Assembly: GCF_004010195.1 (NCBI RefSeq)
Contig: NC_057718.1
Span: 9,091,664-9,129,715 of the forward strand
Length of the DNA: 38,052 nt
DNA from: Chiloscyllium plagiosum
Lineage: Eukaryota
Reading direction: 5' to 3'
Shown: in pieces, positions 6,209-35,978 of the stretch
How the letters are laid out: each line of letters starts with the position of its first letter
Numbering within the stretch: the stretch's first letter is position 1
Made by a program: the position numbers and the translations under genes
Notes under the pieces: generated by a model
Seen by the model: the letters and a program-made list of their open reading frames with translations, nothing else
Told to the model about the DNA's origin: nothing
Databases searched by the model: none

Positions 6209-7050
6209 TGTTATGAAGATGTGGGAACTATGCTTTTAAGAGAGTAAAAGCTAGCAGTGACAGCACCAAGTGTTCTCAATAAAACACACTGTAACATGTG
6301 CTCCAGCTAATGGAGTAGCTGGTTGCCTGGAAATGACATAAAAACAGGTTCAAATTAGGCCAATCAGTTTAAATTAGAGTGGTGCTGGAAAAGCACAGCA
6401 GTTCAGGCAGCATCCGAGATGCTGCCTGAACTGCTGTGCTTTTCCAGCACCACTCTAAACTCTGGTTTCCAGCATCTGCAGTCACTGTTTTTACCCAATC
6501 AGTTTAAACTATACCCTGAAAAACACCAAATTCCTATCAAGTTTGAATTGAGTATATTTGACAATCTTAAAAGTCAACGACACAATCCCATTCTCTGGGG
6601 TATAAGGCCGGGGAAATTGAACAGTTGGGAGAAGAGCTGCCAAGCCCAACATGTAAACCGACTGCCTGAAAAATAGCTCTCTTAAAGGTACCTTTATCAA
6701 TCAGTAACCTGTGAAGCAGAATCCCTAAGAAGACGAAAAGAAGACACAGGAAGATCCAAACAGAAGAACCGAAAGCTGCCTGGTTTTGAGATAAGAAGTT
6801 TCGTTTTGTAAATCTTAATTGGGAGTTTTATCAGACTAGTATTATAGAAGGGAAGGTAAAAGGTAGGTTAGAGGAAGGACTTGAGATCTGAGTTAATTAT
6901 TCTCTGTCATACTTTGAGAATTAAAATTGTTAATTTTTACTTTAAATAGTTCTTGGCCACTTGAATTTTTACAGGTTACTGCATGGCATAAATCTTTTTT
7001 TGTGTTGCTGGTTTTAAATTAAACAGGAGGGTTTACCCTGTGTTGTAATA
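6209..7050 (+). mobile_element. Solo LTR (probably Gypsy-type)
   Basis: Termini TGTTATG...TGTAATA, 4-bp TSD GTAT (6205-6208, 7051-7054), internal TATAA near 6601; host CR1 is seamless when it is removed. Confidence 0.8.
6374..6494. mobile_element. Penelope-terminus-derived hairpin insertion (family B)
   Basis: Perfect 41-bp inverted repeat 6374-6414/6418-6458, 36-nt tail, 14-bp TSD ccaatcagtttaaa (6360-6373, 6495-6508). Confidence 0.85.
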
Positions 7051-7438: not shown

Positions 7439-7618
7439 CTCAGCCTCAAATGTATTCAATGACCAAGCCTCCAGAATCACAGAAGGGTTATGGAGTAGAA
7501 GAAGACTATTCAGCCCTATGTGTATGTATTGGCTAATCAAAAGAGCACCTCCTGCTGACTGAGGCAGGGAATTCCAAACACTGACAAAGCTTGCTCAAAG
7601 AGGTAGCTCTTATAAAGA

Positions 7619-7768
7619 GTTAAAAATCACACGACACTGGGTAATAGTCCAACAAGTCCTCTGATAGCTGCCTGAGGAAGGAATGGGACTCCAAAAGGTG
7701 GACTATAGCCTAGTCTTGAGAGTTGTTTGGCTTTGTCCACCCCAGTCCTACACCGGCACCTCCACATT
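7619..7768. mobile_element. Degenerate Penelope-terminus hairpin (family A)
   Basis: gttaaaaatcacacgacac...ggactatagcc...cagtcctacaccggcacctcc, homologous to 22737-22965. Confidence 0.65.
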
Positions 7769-10863: not shown

Positions 10864-12782
10864 TTAGTGAGCACTTTGGGGACAGTGACCACAATTCGGT
10901 GACTTTTACTCTAGTGATGGAGAGGGATAAGTGTGCACTGCAGGGCAAGAGTTATAGCTAGGGGCAGGGAAATTATGATGCGGTGAGGCACGACTTAGGA
11001 TGCGTGGTTTGGAAAAGTAGGCTTCAAAGGAAGGGCGTAATTGATATGTGGAGCTTGATCAAGGAGCAAATATTGAGTGTCCTTGATAAGTATGTACCTG
11101 TCAGGCAGGGAGGAACGGGTCGTGTGAGGGATCCGTGGTTTAATAAGGAATTGGAATCCCTTGTTAAATGGAAGAGGGCGGCCTATGTAAAGATGAGGCG
11201 TGAAGGTTCAATTGGGGCGATTGAGAGTTATAAGGTAGCCAGGAAGGATCTGAAGAGAGAGCTAAGAGCAGCAAGGAGGGGACATGAAAAGTCCTTAGTT
11301 GGTAGGATTAGGGAAAACCCAAAGGTATGTCAGGAATAAAAGAATGACTAGAGTAGGAATAGGTCCAGTCAAGGATAGTTGTGGGAAGTTGCGTGTGGAG
11401 GCTGAAGAGATTGGGGAGACACTGAGTGAATACTTTTCGTCAGTATTCAATCAGGAACAGGACATTGTTGCCGATGTGAATACTGAGTCACAATTAAGTA
11501 GAATGGACGGTTTTGAGGTATGTAGGGAAGAGGTGTTAGAAATTCTGGAAAGGGTGAAAATAGATAAGTCCCCTGGGCCTGATGGCATTTATCCTAGGAT
11601 TCTCTGGGAAGCAAGGGAGGAGATTGCAGAGCCATTGACCTTGATTTTTATGTCCTCGTTGTCTACAGGAATAATGCCAGTAGACTGGAGGATAGCAAAT
11701 GTGGTACCCTTGTTCAANNNNNNNNNNNNNNNNNNNNNNNNNNNNNNNNNNNNNNNNNNNNNNNNNNNNNNNNNNNNNNNNNNNNNNNNNNNNNNNNNNN
11801 NNNNNNNNNNNNNNNNNNNNNNNNNNNNNNNNNNNNNNNNNNNNNNNNNNNNNNNNNNNNNNNNNNNNNNNNNNNNNNNNNNNNNNNNNNNNNNNNNNNN
11901 NNNNNNNNNNNNNNNNNNNNNNNNNNNNNNNNNNNNNNNNNNNNNNNNNNNNNNNNNNNNNNNNNNTGCAGAGCTGAGCAGAAAGGTGGCAAATGGCGTT
12001 CAATGTAGGTAAGTGTGAGGTGATTCACTTTGGTAAGAGTAACAAAAAGATGGGGTACTGGGTTAATGGTCGGATACTTGGTAGTGTGGATGAGCAGAGG
12101 GATCTTGGTGTCCATGTACACAGATCTCTGAAAGTTGCCACCCAGGTAAATAGTGCGGTGAAGAAGGCATATGGTGTACTGGCTTTTATTGGTAGAGGAA
12201 TTGAGTTCCGGAGTCCTGAGGTCATGTTGCAGTTGTATAAGACACTGGTGCTGCCGCATCTGGAGTATTGTGTGCAGTTTTGGTCGCCATACTATAGGAA
12301 GGAAGTGGAGGCACTGGATCGGGTGCAGAGGAGGTTTACCAGAATGTTGCCTGGAATGATAGGAAGATCATATGAGGAAAGGCTGAGGCACTTGGGGCTG
12401 TTTTCATTGGAGAAAAGAAGGTGTAGGGGTGACTTGATAGAGCTGTACAAGATGATTAGGGGTTTAGATAGGGTTAGACCATGAGAACCTTTTTCCACGT
12501 ATGGAGTCAGCTATTACGAGGGGGCATAGCTTTAAATTAAGGGGAGGTAGGTATAGGACAGATGTTAGGGGTAGATTCTTTACTCAGCGAGTCGTGAGTT
12601 CATGGAATGCCCTGCCAGTAGCAGTGGTGGACTCTCCCTCTTTATGGGCATTTAAACGGGCATTGGATAGGCATATGGAGGATAGTGGGCTAGTGTAGGT
12701 TAGGTGGGCTTGGATCGGCGCAACATCGAGGGCCAAAGGGCCTGTACTGTGCTGTATTCTTCTATGTTCTATGTTCTATGTT
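10864..12782 (+). mobile_element. Young CR1-clade LINE, 5'-truncated, spanning an assembly gap
   Basis: ORFs with DKSPGPDGIYPRIL, DWRIANVVPLF, HLEYCVQFWSPYYRK; (ttctatg)n tail. Confidence 0.95.
11718..11966. other. Assembly gap (249 N)
   Basis: Run of N. Confidence 1.
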
Positions 12783-13199
12783 ATTTATTTTTAGAGCACA
12801 GCATTTAAGGATTGAGATCCCCAGCACATACGTATGGGCCTACTCTGCTAAGGTCGGAATGATTTGCCAGAGGATTACCGAAACAAGAGCAGCTGCACAT
12901 TAAACAGAAATCCTTCCCAGTGCAACAGAGTGCAATCATTCTGCAGAGCTGTCTCTTGATGTTATTGGCAGGGATCATCATTGACAGGGAATCCTCTCTA
13001 TCCAAGCAGAATGTTAAACCTCGATGTCCAACAGTGTGGAGTGATCCTCCAGCCACCCCATCCTCAGATGGAAGGAGTCTGCCTGTTGTGAAGGCGATTT
13101 CCAAAATCGTTCATTCAATCCAAGTGACACTGGGGAAGCATTGGGAAGACTGGGCCCAGCCTCATAGTGGTACAGCAGGAGATGTTCTGCTGTTCAACT

Positions 13200-14259: not shown

Positions 14260-14868
14260 TCTTCATTCTCTCTTTCCCCACCCTTTATACCCCACACTCC
14301 AGATCCTGCTATGATGTGGAGTGCTTCCAGCCATTCACAGTCCCCAATATCATTTATCCAGCTTCCCCTCTCCAGTGCCACTAATAACTCATTGTCAGCC
14401 ACTAACGGTCCTCATTGGCAGCTACTGACTCTCCCAGACTGACTATTACCCATTCACTTCAAGATTAGAGTGGTGCTGGAAAAGCACAGCAGGTCAGGCA
14501 GCATTCGAGGAGCAGGAAAATCGACGTTTCGGGCAAAACGGCGATTTCCCTGCTCCTCGGATGCTGCCTGACCTGCAGTGCTTTTCCAGCACCACTCTAA
14601 TCTTGACTCTAATCTTCAGCATCTGCAGTACCCACTTCCACCCAGTTGATATTACCCATTCATTTGTCTGGCCAACTGCTGTTCTCTCTGTCTGGGCTCT
14701 ACCTCCTCCTATCGTTTACTCCGCCCCCTCTTCAGCACATATTCCAACCATTTCCCAGCCGCAATCAGTTCTGAGGAAGGGTCACTGGACCCAAAACCTT
14801 AACTCTGCTCTCTCTCTACAGATGCTACCATACCTGCTGAGTTTCTCCCAACAATTTCTGATTTTATG
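14260..14868 (+). mobile_element. Penelope-like element 3' terminal region (family C) with a degenerate hammerhead at 14767-14804; split by a hairpin insertion
   Basis: Pyrimidine-rich pLTR ending agtt-ctgagga-a-gggtc actg gaccc-aaaacctt-aact...cagatgctaccatacctgctgagttt. Confidence 0.7.
14460..14649. mobile_element. Penelope-terminus hairpin insertion (family B)
   Basis: About 70-bp inverted arms (caagattagagtggtgctgg.../...ccagcaccactctaatcttg), 44-nt tail, TSD tattacccattca (14444-14456, 14650-14662). Confidence 0.85.
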
Positions 14869-14939: not shown

Positions 14940-15052
14940 AGAAATGAAGTTGCATTTATATAGTGACTTTCACAATGTCAGGATGATGGACATCGCCTGC
15001 TTTACCTCAACAGCTGCAAAATCAACTCGCAATTAAACACCGTTGTTGTAAT
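14940..15052 (-). mobile_element. Deu-SINE/L2-type 3' tail remnant
   Basis: ttgcatttatatagtgactttcacaat...gttgttgtaat; similar remnant at 21495-21612. Confidence 0.5.
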
Positions 15053-15053
15053 A

Positions 15054-15531
15054 TAGAACATAGAACATAGAAGAATACAGCGCAGTACAGGCCCTTCGGC
15101 CCTCGATGTTGCGCCGATCCAAGCCCACCTAACCTACACTAGCCCACTATCCTCCATATGCCTCGCCAATGCCGGTTTAAATGCCCATAATGAGGGAGAG
15201 TCCACCACTGCTACTGGCAGGGCATTCCATGAACTCACGACTCGCTGAGTAAAGAACCTACCCCTAACATCGGTCCTGTACCTACCTCCCCTTAATTTAA
15301 AGCTATGCCCCCTCGTAATAGCTGACTCCATACGTGGAAAAAGATTCTCACTGTCAACCCTATCTAAACCCCTAATCATCTTGTACACCTCTATCAAGTC
15401 ACCCCTAAACCTTCTTTTCTCCAATGAAAACAACCCCAGGTGCCTCAGCCTTTCCTCATACGATCTTCCTACCATACCAGGCAACATCCTGGTAAACCTC
15501 CTCTGCACCCATTCCAGTGCCTCCACATCCT
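15054..15531 (-). mobile_element. Young CR1 3' fragment, same subfamily as 10864-12782
   Basis: ORF 15134-15565 nearly identical to 12300-12698; (atagaac)n tail. Confidence 0.95.
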
Positions 15532-15696
15532 TCAAAGCAATGGCACTGCAGAAATGATCAGACATAATTTGATGAAAGACATATCGATTTATTTCACAGT
15601 TGTTCCTGTCAAGGTCAGTATCTGTTGCTTAACCCATATCATACTTAAACTCAGTGCTTTGCTGCACCCACCATTTTCAAGATGTTAATAAGAAAA

Positions 15697-17420: not shown

Positions 17421-17529
17421 ATTTCCGTTCCATCTGTCCTTGAGGAGATGATAGTGAGCTGCCCCCACAATACAACAGAGCGTCCCACTGGGCTACAGTA
17501 TTAGGCTTAAAAATGACACCTCCAAAGCA

Positions 17530-17733
17530 TGACTTGGAGGTGCCAGTGTTGGACTGGGCTGGACAAAGTTAAAAATCACACAACACCAGGTATAGTCCAA
17601 CAGATTTATTTGGAAGCACTGGCTTTCAGAATGTTGCTCCTTCACAACCACCTGATGAAGGAGTGGCACTCTGAAAGCTAGCGCTCCCAAATAAACCTGT
17701 TGGACTACAACCTGGTGTTGCGTGAGCTTTAAC
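17530..17733. mobile_element. Penelope-terminus hairpin (family A), plus-strand hammerhead at 17649-17683
   Basis: Inverted arms gttaaaaatcacacaacaccagg.../...cctggtgttgcgtgagctttaac. Confidence 0.85.
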
Positions 17734-21965: not shown

Positions 21966-22788
21966 TTCTATTTGGAATCCACATCTTAATATGATTCAGT
22001 ACCTCCAGGGGCACTAGAATAGACAGGGGTTAAAAAACAAAAACAGGTTTTTCAGAGAAAAGAAGAAACAAGTTACTACGGTGTCATTTTTCCTCCTTGT
22101 TACCTTTTAAAATTTGATCTGTTTGTTGGCACTGCTACTGTGATTATTTAGATTGCAAAACACCAACACAGAGCAAAAGCTCAGAAACCATGGAAACCGG
22201 CCTACTGCTTTTAGGTTCCAGTTAGCTAGAGCCCTCAGCTTGGCCGAGCTGTACCTGTCAAGGAAACTAGTTTCTCCTTGTGCTAATTGTTGCACGTACC
22301 GAGTGATTTTTTTTTCTCTCTCCTCTCGCTGTGTGATTTATTAAATCACAATTAGAATGTCATTAATATCTGCTCACTGATTAACAAAATGCCTTACCAA
22401 ACAGCTGCTTTAATTAAATCAAACAATTACCATTTAAATATTCCAAAATAATCTTGATGAACATCCTTTTTACCCAGACTAATGAAATATGTCCTTGAGA
22501 TGACATCGGTGGCAGATACACAATCAGTTTTATTCTTCATTCCCGAGACAATGTGTGAATCATTTACATGAGTTCCCATGGACAGCTATCAGAGTTCATA
22601 CTGCAAATCATACCCAACGTTTTGCTTCCTCATCTGAAAGTACTGACTGATGTCAGGTTATGTTTCCAGGGGACACTTCACCCGCCCAACGTCCAATGCC
22701 GACAAATACCATTGTTCATGTGGAACCCTGGGCATTAAGTTAAAAATCACACAACACCAGGTTATAGTCCAACAGGTTTATTTGGAAG

Positions 22789-22823
22789 CACTAGCTTTCG
22801 GAGTGCTGCCCCTTCATCAGGTG
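22789..22823 (-). ncRNA. Minimal type-I hammerhead ribozyme motif
   Basis: CAC-CUGAUGA-A-GGGG cagca CUCC-GAA-AGCU-A-GUG. Confidence 0.65.
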
Positions 22824-22844
22824 ATTGTGGAATTACTCCACAAC

Positions 22845-22879
22845 TACCTGATGAAGGAGCAGTGCTCCGAAAGCTAGTG
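22845..22879 (+). ncRNA. Minimal type-I hammerhead ribozyme motif
   Basis: UAC-CUGAUGA-A-GGAGC agu GCUCC-GAA-AGCU-A-GUG. Confidence 0.7.
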
Positions 22880-23009
22880 CTTCCAAATAAACCTGTTGGA
22901 CTATAACTTGGTGTTGTGCGATTTTTAACTTTGTACACCCAAGTCCAAAACCAGCACCTCCAAATCCTGGGCATGAAGAGTTAGTTATTTAAGTGTGTCG
23001 CATCTTTGG

Positions 23010-24248: not shown

Positions 24249-24924
24249 GTGCTAACTACTGAGCCACTGTGCCTCCCTAACTTGATACTAAGTTGTCAGT
24301 CATGCTCAGAGACAGGGTCATGTAGAAAGCAGTTACTCATTAAGGAATTGTTTCTGATCTTGCTACACGACACAATCCTAACTCAAGCAAACCTTGAAAG
24401 GAAAAGGGGCGATTCATTAAAAGCCCTCAATATGATACTAATTAACAGGCCAGAAATGGAGAGTATGAAAACCCTTTTAAGAGAAAGAGGGGAAAAAAAT
24501 AAGACTGTATGCTACACTTTAATTTTGTTCCTATCTAAACAGCCTTCTTGAAATCTATCTTGATTGACCTACTGTGGCATTGCTCACAGTTAACATAACA
24601 GCGTTACGTAATGAAAAGATAATAAAGGAAAGGACCTTTAAGTAAGTATAGGATTACTAGAGCACATGCAACCTGAACCCAGATATCGACAAAAAGAAAA
24701 TTGAACAATCATACATATTGATAATTGATTACTTCACCTTAGTTCATATTTATTGTTCAATAGAGGATGAAAATTACTTTTCAATAGAGAATGAAAAGTA
24801 TTGTTCAATAATGAGCTATTGGAAAGTAAATGAAAAAAAAAACAAAGTTGAAAAAGGATAAAACCCCAGGTCCAAATGGTATGCAGCCGCATTGTGGTCA
24901 TGTACTCTGTGTGTTAATGTACTG

Positions 24925-25632
24925 TGATTTGGAGGAAGCGGTATTGGACTGAGGTGGACAAAGTTAAAAATCACACAACACCAGGTTATAGTCCAACAGG
25001 TTTATTTGGAAGCACTAGCTTTCAAAGCGCTGCTCCTTCATCAGGTGATTGTGAAGTAGGTCCATAAGACATAGAATTTATAGCAAAAGGTTACAGAGTC
25101 ATGCGGCTGAAATGACATATTGAACAAACCTAGATTAAGTCATTCATCTTTCAGAATGGGTTTGCTAGTTTTGGTTCTTTAATAGGTAAATCCTAGAACT
25201 TCTTTTAAATGACATTCTCAAGATAACTTAAGGTTTTGTAATAAAAGGTGTCATCTCAGCTCAGATAATGCATTAAAGGCTTGAGGTTAAAGTCTGTCTG
25301 TATCCCAGTCTTGAGTCAGACTGGTTCTATTGCTAAAGTGGGATTTACAAAATCTTACATGGACTGACTGCCTGCAGGTTATGCATTTTTTGAGCAAAAT
25401 AGAATGTATGTGCAAATATTTTCTGCAAAATTTTTGCATTTTATCATTCTAAAAGATGAAAGACTTAACAATCTAGGTTTGTTCAATGTATCATTGCATC
25501 ATTGTAATTGTTTGCTATAAATTCTGTGTCTTATGATCCTGTCCACAGCCACCTGATGAAGAAGCAGCGTTCTGAAAGCTAGTGCTTCCAAATAAACCTG
25601 TTGGATTATAACCTGGTGTTGTGTGATTTTTA
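24925..25632. mobile_element. Large asymmetric inverted Penelope pLTR pair (family A); hammerheads at 25013-25047 (-) and 25550-25584 (+)
   Basis: About 500-bp left arm and 190-bp inverted right arm. Confidence 0.85.
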
Positions 25633-25678
25633 ATGATGAGGGAGATCAGACTTGGAGGAGGTGCATGTAGAATGCAGC

Positions 25679-30843: not shown

Positions 30844-31418
30844 GGAGGGTATTGACTAAAACCAAACCTATCACATGACACCATTTCCCATCCGAAATAC
30901 CTGTCACCTTCACACCCATCTTCGCTGGTTTATGTCTTGGTTCCCAATTTTCAACTGCAAAGAAGTAAAAATCATCATTAACAGGCTTTTCATGCTTTCT
31001 TTGCATTTATGTTAAGGTCGGTTTAACGAGCAGGACCAGCATTTATTGGCCATCCCTAACTGCCCTTGAAGTGGTGGTGGTGGTGGTTCCAACCTTGAAT
31101 AAGGCTGAGTGTCTCGCAAGGCCACTCCAGAAATCCGTTCCGATTAAGTGGGTCTTTCTCTTTATGTATTTTATCACGGGGTGTGGACATCGCTGACAAG
31201 GCCACAGTTTGCGGCCCAGTTGCCCTTGAACTGGGCGGCTTGCAGAACTATTGCAGAATTAACACTCAGACGTGTTGCCGGGGTTTGGGAGCACACTGAC
31301 AAAAAAAGGGCAGACTTACTTCCCTAAAAGGAGACGTCATGTGCAGGTGTTGGACTGGGATGGGCAAAGTCAGAAGTCACACAACACCAGGTTATAGTCC
31401 GGCAGGTTTATTGGAAAT

Positions 31419-31453
31419 CACAAGCTTTCGGAGCGCTGCTCCTTCATCAGGTG
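31419..31453 (-). ncRNA. Minimal type-I hammerhead ribozyme motif
   Basis: CAC-CUGAUGA-A-GGAGC agc GCUCC-GAA-AGCU-U-GUG. Confidence 0.72.
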
Positions 31454-31563
31454 CAGTGTGAGAGGGCATATCAGCATGGAGTTTTAGGTTTGTTCATTCC
31501 ACTTACATCCATTGTATGATCCCGCTGCCTATAAACTCTGCATCGGTGTGCCTTCTCTCACTG

Positions 31564-31598
31564 TACCTGATGAAGGAGCAGCGCTCCGAAAGCTTGTG
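31564..31598 (+). ncRNA. Minimal type-I hammerhead ribozyme motif
   Basis: UAC-CUGAUGA-A-GGAGC agc GCUCC-GAA-AGCU-U-GUG. Confidence 0.72.
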
Positions 31599-31721
31599 AT
31601 TTCCAATAAACCTGTTAGACTATAACCCGGTGTCATGTGATTTTTCACTTTCTGTAAAAGGAGAAGGTAAACCAGAGGAATTTGCATGACAATCCAGTAC
31701 GTTCAGAGCCACTATCATTGT

Positions 31722-35651: not shown

Positions 35652-35978
35652 CGTTGCTGAGAGAGTGGTGCTGGAAAGACACAGCAGGGCAGGCAGCATC
35701 CGAGGAGCAGGAGAGTCGACGTTTCGGGCATAAGCCCTTCATCAGACAAATGGGAGGTGGGTGGGGCTAGAGGGAAGGTAGCTGGAGAGCGCGATAGACA
35801 GATGGAGGTAGAAGTGAAGGTGATAGGTTGGAGAGGAGGGAGGAGCGAATAGGTGGGAAGGAAGCTGGACAGGTAGGACCATTCAGTAGGCTGGTGCTGA
35901 GTTGGTAGGTAGGATCTGGGATAAGGTGGAGAGAGGGGAACTGAGGAAACTGGTAAAATCCACATTGATCACTTTCTC
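35652..35978 (-). mobile_element. Penelope 3' terminus family B with a hammerhead core at 35715-35747
   Basis: Minus strand CUGAUGA-A-GGGC uuau GCCC-GAA-ACGU-C; possible TSD ctaggataaag/ctagaataaag. Confidence 0.8.

Follow-up and report, generated by a model that had tools for sequence, protein, structure and literature searches.

The hairpin at 22727..22978 of the window (the window being the whole stretch of 38,052 nt from Chiloscyllium plagiosum that was analysed) is very probably a dead and very short insertion of an endonuclease-bearing Penelope-like retrotransposon (PLE), built in place at the time of insertion. The inverted copy, the one-sided tail, the target-site duplication (TSD) and the opposite-strand hammerheads have all been published already for such elements, and the hairpin is an ordinary stub. 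The locus itself matters little, and it can be annotated as a dead PLE stub as opposed to a MITE, a retrozyme or a microRNA-like hairpin. The pattern seen across its family could be of interest to retroelement specialists, as a fixed start together with an extra G predicts a cap 8 nt upstream of the hammerhead core (position -8).

Anatomy of the hairpin

The hairpin consists of two arms of 95 nt each that are 93% complementary and separated by 5 nt (Table 1), just as the initial annotation had described them. The unit has a predicted folding energy of -161.3 kcal/mol (z = -24), and none of 200 shuffled sequences was equally stable. It is flanked on both sides by CCTGGGCAT, whereas random pairs of 9-mers drawn from the window agree with a frequency of 1.2e-5. 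The initial annotation had recognized both this duplication and the unit that it encloses, although the span between the 9-mers is 230 bp rather than 229 bp, and the duplication is probably 13 bp long rather than 9, since the flanks match at 12 of 13 bases (22727-22739 and 22966-22978; chance 3.5e-6 for random window pairs). A 13-bp duplication overlaps the end of the left arm and fits the mode of 12 found in the family. The unit is asymmetric, with the right arm longer by 34 bases that correspond to the PLE tail. The 5-nt loop most likely goes back to a centre of 1 nt in which a single substitution has occurred, judging from its undecayed form in two other loci (L008 and L032).

By inspection, each arm features CUGAUGA, an extra A, a stem II of 4-5 bp, GAAA, a palindromic AGCU and a 3-bp stem I, followed by AATAAA. 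Both hammerheads are of the minimal PLE type, in which stem I has 3 bp, an extra A follows A9 and AGCU replaces stem III, and both arms share with the motifs described in PMC4209133 the CUGAUGA...GAAA-UH core, the extra nucleotide at 9/10.1, the G10.1-C11.1 pair, the palindromic 15.2-16.2 and the short helix I. Both arms retain all positions of the catalytic core, and the two cores lie 27 nt apart. The same inspection upholds the earlier claim of one hammerhead plus AATAAA per arm, with a single sense hammerhead on each strand. An Rfam scan returned no match at the hairpin locus down to E = 1, and neither arm folded alone gives a hammerhead.

Table 1. Features of the hairpin in window coordinates. 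Offsets are relative to C3, with the parental sequence upstream of C3 taken by eye from three copies (L003, L005 and L124).
Feature	Position	Strand	Remarks
Left target-site duplication	22727..22735	+	Exact over 9 bp; probably 13 bp, to 22739, over the arm end
Short arm, copy of PLE pseudo-LTR/5' UTR	22737..22831	- (sense)	Ends at inner terminus, without tail
Short-arm AATAAA, putative poly(A) signal of parent	22777..22782	-	
Short-arm minimal hammerhead, C3 at 22820	22789..22823	-	By inspection; stem II weakened by substitutions at 22810 and 22804
Head-to-head junction	22832..22836	.	Both arms reach ~-13/-14 relative to C3
Long arm, paired part, copy of PLE pseudo-LTR/5' UTR	22837..22931	+	
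Long-arm minimal hammerhead, C3 at 22848	22845..22879	+	By inspection; architecture as described in PMC4209133
Parts of long-arm hammerhead	Stem II 22856-22868; GAAA 22869-22872; palindromic AGCT 22872-22875	+	Predicted cut after 22876
Long-arm AATAAA	22886..22891	+	
PLE tail, 34 nt, on one arm only	22932..22965	+	Abuts the ATG of the ORF in parent copies
Right target-site duplication	22966..22974	+	Probably to 22978

The parent element

Within the window, blastn with the right arm gave 14 matches including itself, several of which form inverted pairs (7613-7767, 17529-17733, 24924-25633 and 31341-31651). Walking upstream from a longer copy reached the end of an endonuclease-like ORF, and a PLE reverse transcriptase (RT) with a C-terminal GIY-YIG domain, the latter recognized by eye, is contiguous with hairpin-type terminal sequence at three loci (L082, L091 and L095). 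At L082, fragments of RT and GIY-YIG are enclosed by an inverted arm that bears the tail and a direct arm that lacks it, with the same two ends as the hairpins. The best protein homologue, P0001 from a shark, matches RVT_1 at 5e-9, and DKG and GIY-YIG can be recognized in it by eye. No GIY-YIG match was returned by Pfam for the fragments or for P0001, and five ORF fragments had no significant Pfam match at all. The search for an intact, full-length ORF gave none, as the longest frames fetched are broken or interrupted by N.

A CX4CxxC motif precedes GIY-YIG in L091 and P0001 and is decayed in other copies. In the RT-EN linker, CX2-5CxxC is described for Neptune and Nematis and as absent from Penelope/Poseidon (PMC8557442). 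By this linker motif, the parent is classified as an endonuclease-bearing PLE of the Neptune type (Neptune or Nematis). The Poseidon and Penelope clades were also considered, and do not fit with CX4CxxC.

The tail abuts the ATG of the ORF directly in L088 and L095, and the ORF continues after the tail in 18 of the first 40 of 236 tail-plus-ATG matches, a set from which L131 was dropped as a chance match and in which L127 and L128 are the two arms of one insertion. Since the tail runs into the ORF in parent copies, the hairpin arms are copies of the pseudo-LTR and 5' UTR. Both arms copy ~130 nt located 5' of the parent ORF, where the pseudo-LTR with its hammerhead lies directly 5' of the ORF, and the long arm is 86-92% identical to the stretch immediately 5' of the ORF in those parent copies that hold the whole arm. 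The RT and GIY-YIG of the parent and the shared ends support the initial annotation in its preference for retrotransposition over a MITE and for a Penelope-like origin.

MITEs, which are non-autonomous DNA transposons, have symmetric terminal inverted repeats, uniform copies, a TSD of fixed length and a transposase partner. The hairpin resembles them in being short and in having inverted repeats and a TSD, but one arm is 34 nt longer than the other, centres vary between loci and duplications range from 9 to 18 nt, making this reading improbable in the extreme; MITE identity is refuted by a parent ORF that encodes RT and GIY-YIG.

Several further observations concern the parent and its relatives. 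At the poly(A)-signal position, which precedes a GT-rich stretch, the arms of L040-L079 read ATTAAA in 57 of 80 cases and AATAAA in 6. ATTAAA and AATAAA are both standard poly(A) signals, and the sequence suggests that the signal is functional in the parent. The long RT-endonuclease copy at L082 carries within its 3' UTR a nested short hairpin of the same family (~2138-2367, TSD of 13-15 bp), and in other fold-back insertions one or both arms extend beyond the tail to enter the ORF at its start (L127/L128 on G000:C3, L111, L112, L136 and L137). A second family with its own minimal hammerhead and short fold-back insertions is present in the window (6376-6457, 14467-14598 and 35662-35745) and at L090, where the insertion sits within a PLE ORF. 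The window also holds inverted 3' ends of a LINE RT (12298-12783 and 15049-15533), 94-95% complementary over ~490 nt and 2.3 kb apart.

Junctions, arm ends and the route of insertion

Short hairpins of this family are abundant in the 3.56-Gb genome that holds the window. Exact-anchor patterns identify at least 6,702 with 58-88 nt between two downstream anchors, and exact 12-mer core anchors identify at least 2,735 with 4-34 nt between the two cores; controls with reversed patterns gave 0, and the counts are lower bounds. A sample was formed by the first 40 of the 2,735 loci, chosen solely by the two core 12-mers. Sampled loci are all pattern matches, mostly from the start of contig C1, and are biased toward well-preserved copies. 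One tailed and one untailed arm are found in 33 of the 40, and a duplication of at least 9 nt with at most one mismatch in 32 (mode 12, range 9 to 18 nt, by a permissive search). The 40 hairpins have 37 distinct centre strings by eye, and their junctions show microhomology in 13 cases, are blunt in 7 and contain extra bases in 20. The 35-bp junction of the hairpin at 22727 has its only exact match at that locus, with three more loci within 3 mismatches. Two of the loci with near-identical junctions differ from it in other respects, L002 having the other poly(A)-signal allele, that of another subfamily, in both arms and L032 having its tail on the opposite side, and at least these therefore arose separately.

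The initial annotation had entertained a self-contained hairpin element that amplifies as a unit, non-autonomously and in the manner of a retrozyme. Hairpins of similar size are indeed very numerous, one 15-nt centre string recurs in 3 of the 40 sampled loci, and the centre at 22727 is nearly repeated in 4 loci genome-wide. However, such recurrence is expected from the joining of ends near one hot spot, the loci with a common centre differ in subfamily or tail side, and 37 centres among 40 loci leave amplification as a unit very unlikely. In addition, non-LTR retrozymes are defined as tandem repeats (10.64898/2026.07.22.740005) while the hairpin is inverted; it carries one sense hammerhead per strand and very probably has not spread as a unit. 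Dead inverted Penelope insertions had been named as the reading to adopt if inversion junctions differed from copy to copy, and the centres do mostly differ, with only a few junctions recurring. Rare propagation of a junction may occur, as the four near-shared junctions of the 22727 type and the pair L075 and L076 could indicate. The members of this pair (G000:C1, ~474 kb apart) have in common an unusual 21-nt junction with one mismatch, and differ in tail arm, which is opposite, and in arm alleles.

The inner ends of the arms cluster. The downstream anchors that give 6,702 loci with a gap of 58-88 nt give 397 with 0-28 nt (the two bins counted, with gaps of 29-57 and >88 nt outside them), and the core anchors give 2,735 loci with 4-34 nt versus 437 with 35-65 nt. 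This clustering points to the cDNA stopping immediately 5' of the core. The hammerhead cut site was considered as an alternative stop and rejected on the count of 397 versus 6,702 loci.

The modal arm extent is -8, reached by 17 of 80 arms, and the next base is G in 15 of these 17. Where a copy extends further upstream, its base at -9 is C in 24 of 25 cases and never G. Genome-wide, 4,338 arms have a base other than C at -9, and the first 100 listed comprise 69 G, 22 T and 9 A by hand count. Continuation into parental sequence is seen in none of the first 20 G arms, but by eye in 9 of the 13 T arms that are among the first 20 non-G arms, as C-to-T mutations. The ratio of G to A at -9, 69:9, exceeds the background of 0.64 (p = 1e-6). 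Within hairpins, this G excess has a confounder: the partner arm is itself rich in G, the other 63 arms are followed by G in 32 cases, and in several loci the partner arm could have supplied the extra G. The non-parental G suggests a copied cap, with two cDNAs having run off the 5' end of the RNA before being joined. At 22727, the arms start around -13/-14, beyond the mode at -8, and have no extra G, so that run-off at this hairpin needs either a minor upstream start or plain truncation.

The insertion might also have been longer originally and have lost its centre later, as occurs in long palindromes. Longer inverted copies do exist (window 24924-25633, L039 and L082), and the hairpin at 22727 lies off the -8 peak, but the gap counts (6,702 vs. 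397 and 2,735 vs. 437) speak against later loss, and deletion would not be expected to produce a start that is fixed and bears a non-parental G. We consider this explanation improbable.

The formation of inverted and tandem PLE ends has been called undefined (PMC8557442). The route to the hairpin that we favour, by a small margin over its being wrong, starts with a staggered cut. The GIY-YIG endonuclease would cut both target strands with a stagger of ~12 nt, and each 3' end would prime reverse transcription at one of two internal start sites. Both cDNAs would then halt at or near the 5' end of the RNA, slightly upstream of the hammerhead, and their ends would be joined blunt, via 1-5 nt of microhomology, or with filler. 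The hammerheads and AATAAA would be passengers from the parent with no role in the hairpin. The fixed outer ends, 34 nt apart, together with a TSD of ~12 bp, fit with one cDNA per strand and one per start site, although PAc, the element with two such start sites, belongs to a different clade. In vitro, the PAc protein cuts and extends both strands, favours ATT and initiates reverse transcription at a pair of internal sites delimiting the tail, and the PAc ribozyme cut only together with the protein and was dispensable for insertion (PMC11167929).

A more specific version, for and against which the evidence seems to us evenly balanced, is that the hairpins are 'double strong-stop' products. Both strands would prime at two internal sites of an uncleaved RNA whose capped 5' end lies 8 nt upstream of the core, and ~95-130 nt would be copied up to this end, with a C added opposite the cap before the ends are joined. 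If so, hairpins map the transcription start of the PLE, with the one at 22727 stemming from a minor start around -13; the template in vivo does not end at the ribozyme cut; and longer copies need a jump from the 5' to the 3' terminus of that RNA, as in LTR elements. The Penelope of D. virilis has an internal promoter (PMC2377424), and the untemplated 5' G of full-length LINE-1 and SVA insertions has been interpreted as a copied cap (PMC4859970). In the open-access literature, we found no paper that interprets PLE insertions in terms of a cap G or a strong stop, and none on Penelope palindromes of sharks.

An alternative possibility is that a single cDNA folds back and primes itself, so that the second arm is copied from the first at the DNA level, as has been proposed for palindromic PLE junctions (PMC3846280). 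We regard this as the less probable course but one to be taken seriously. The centre of the 22727 hairpin was once a near-perfect palindrome, arms are 5.9% apart within loci compared to 7.4% between loci, and the A/T allele in the poly(A) signal is discordant between arms in 3 of 37 loci versus 10.3 expected at random (3 of the 40 loci, with a broken arm, being left out). On the other hand, 20 of the 40 junctions contain 2-15 extra bases and 7 are blunt, both arms of L053 end in an extra G around a 2-nt spacer, and the end of the short arm is fixed, falling 34 nt short of that of the long arm, in a match to the two RT start sites of PAc (PMC11167929). A subfamily-specific 2-nt indel that differs between arms in 7 of 37 loci is a weak point against self-priming, with a TG run elsewhere slipping in 4 of 37. 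As a separate observation, two common alleles of the stem II loop in the arms of L040-L079 are mutual reverse complements, and this column is arm-discordant in 11 of 37 loci; inversion of a small hairpin is a possible origin of these alleles.

Age of the locus and comparison with known systems

In organisms B (run X8) and D (run X15, which has flat depth and may be DNA), contigs cross both junctions, and in organism C (run X11) one contig crosses the right junction. The flanks in these organisms have diverged by ~2-4%, and the presence of junction sequence in all three places the insertion before those splits. No empty orthologous site was seen in relatives among the joints listed. The arms differ at seven positions, including one CG that has decayed to TG in one arm and to CA in the other (CpG decay on opposite strands), and the CA form breaks a stem II pair. 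The 22727 locus is old and decaying. To the left of the hairpin, an AT-rich region of the window with TAAT motifs (~22340-22610) shows few differences among those listed in three other organisms, and is possibly a conserved non-coding element.

It had also been suggested that the hairpin serves as a folding-dependent ribozyme switch or as a source of dsRNA or siRNA. In favour of this, read-through would yield a transcript with a 95-bp duplex, this old insertion has been retained, and the core positions for catalysis are preserved in each arm. However, the arms stand head to head, so a polymerase arriving from either direction would transcribe the antisense arm first and the sense ribozyme only afterwards, which would leave no window for folding. 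Stem III consists only of AGCU and needs a second ribozyme of the same sense, and minimal PLE hammerheads examined as single motifs did not cleave (PMC4209133). The seven arm differences, with CpG decay and a broken stem II pair among them, and the existence of thousands of similar loci further argue against a role for this particular copy. A ribozyme switch at this hairpin is unlikely, and recruitment of the locus to any of these functions is highly improbable.

The inverted pseudo-LTR, the one-sided tail and a 9-bp TSD have each been described for PLEs (PMC3846280, PMC8557442, PMC8969392). Canonical insertions of endonuclease-bearing PLEs, including Pen2a of Adineta vaga (PMC3846280), the general scheme of PMC8557442 and the 34-bp repeat of D. 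virilis (PMC2377424), are described with an inverted, 5'-truncated, head-to-head copy, a tail of 30-40 bp at one end, a TSD of ~8-13 bp and a near-palindromic junction, all of which are found here. In comparison with these accounts, the hairpin has no ORF between its arms and is at the shortest end of the range, and the tail of its family ends at the ATG as opposed to inside the ORF. Dual minimal hammerheads on opposite strands have been described about 100-700 bp apart (PMC4209133), whereas the cores of the hairpin are only 27 nt apart; the relevant passages of that paper name no shark family.

PAc, a Poseidon element of Anolis carolinensis (Frangieh et al. 2024, PMC11167929), provides a working parallel for the hairpin family, with cutting and extension of both strands, two internal RT start sites that define the tail, an uncleaved RNA template and ATT in the target. 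It belongs to a different clade than the hairpin family, which has the CX2-5CxxC linker, and its start sites lie 111-118 nt into the ORF; the passages on PAc deal neither with short inverted insertions nor with an additional G at the 5' end. Non-LTR retrozymes (10.64898/2026.07.22.740005) are, like the hairpin, non-coding, equipped with a type I hammerhead and derived from PLE pseudo-LTR sequence. As described, they are head-to-tail tandems with at least 2 ribozymes of the same sense that spread as units, while the hairpin is an inverted pair with a locus-specific junction. In the twin priming of L1, as reviewed in PMC4859970, two primers yield an inversion, as proposed here for the hairpin. 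In contrast to L1-driven insertions, the two cDNAs of the hairpin would start from nearly the same internal sites, such that its arms mirror each other.
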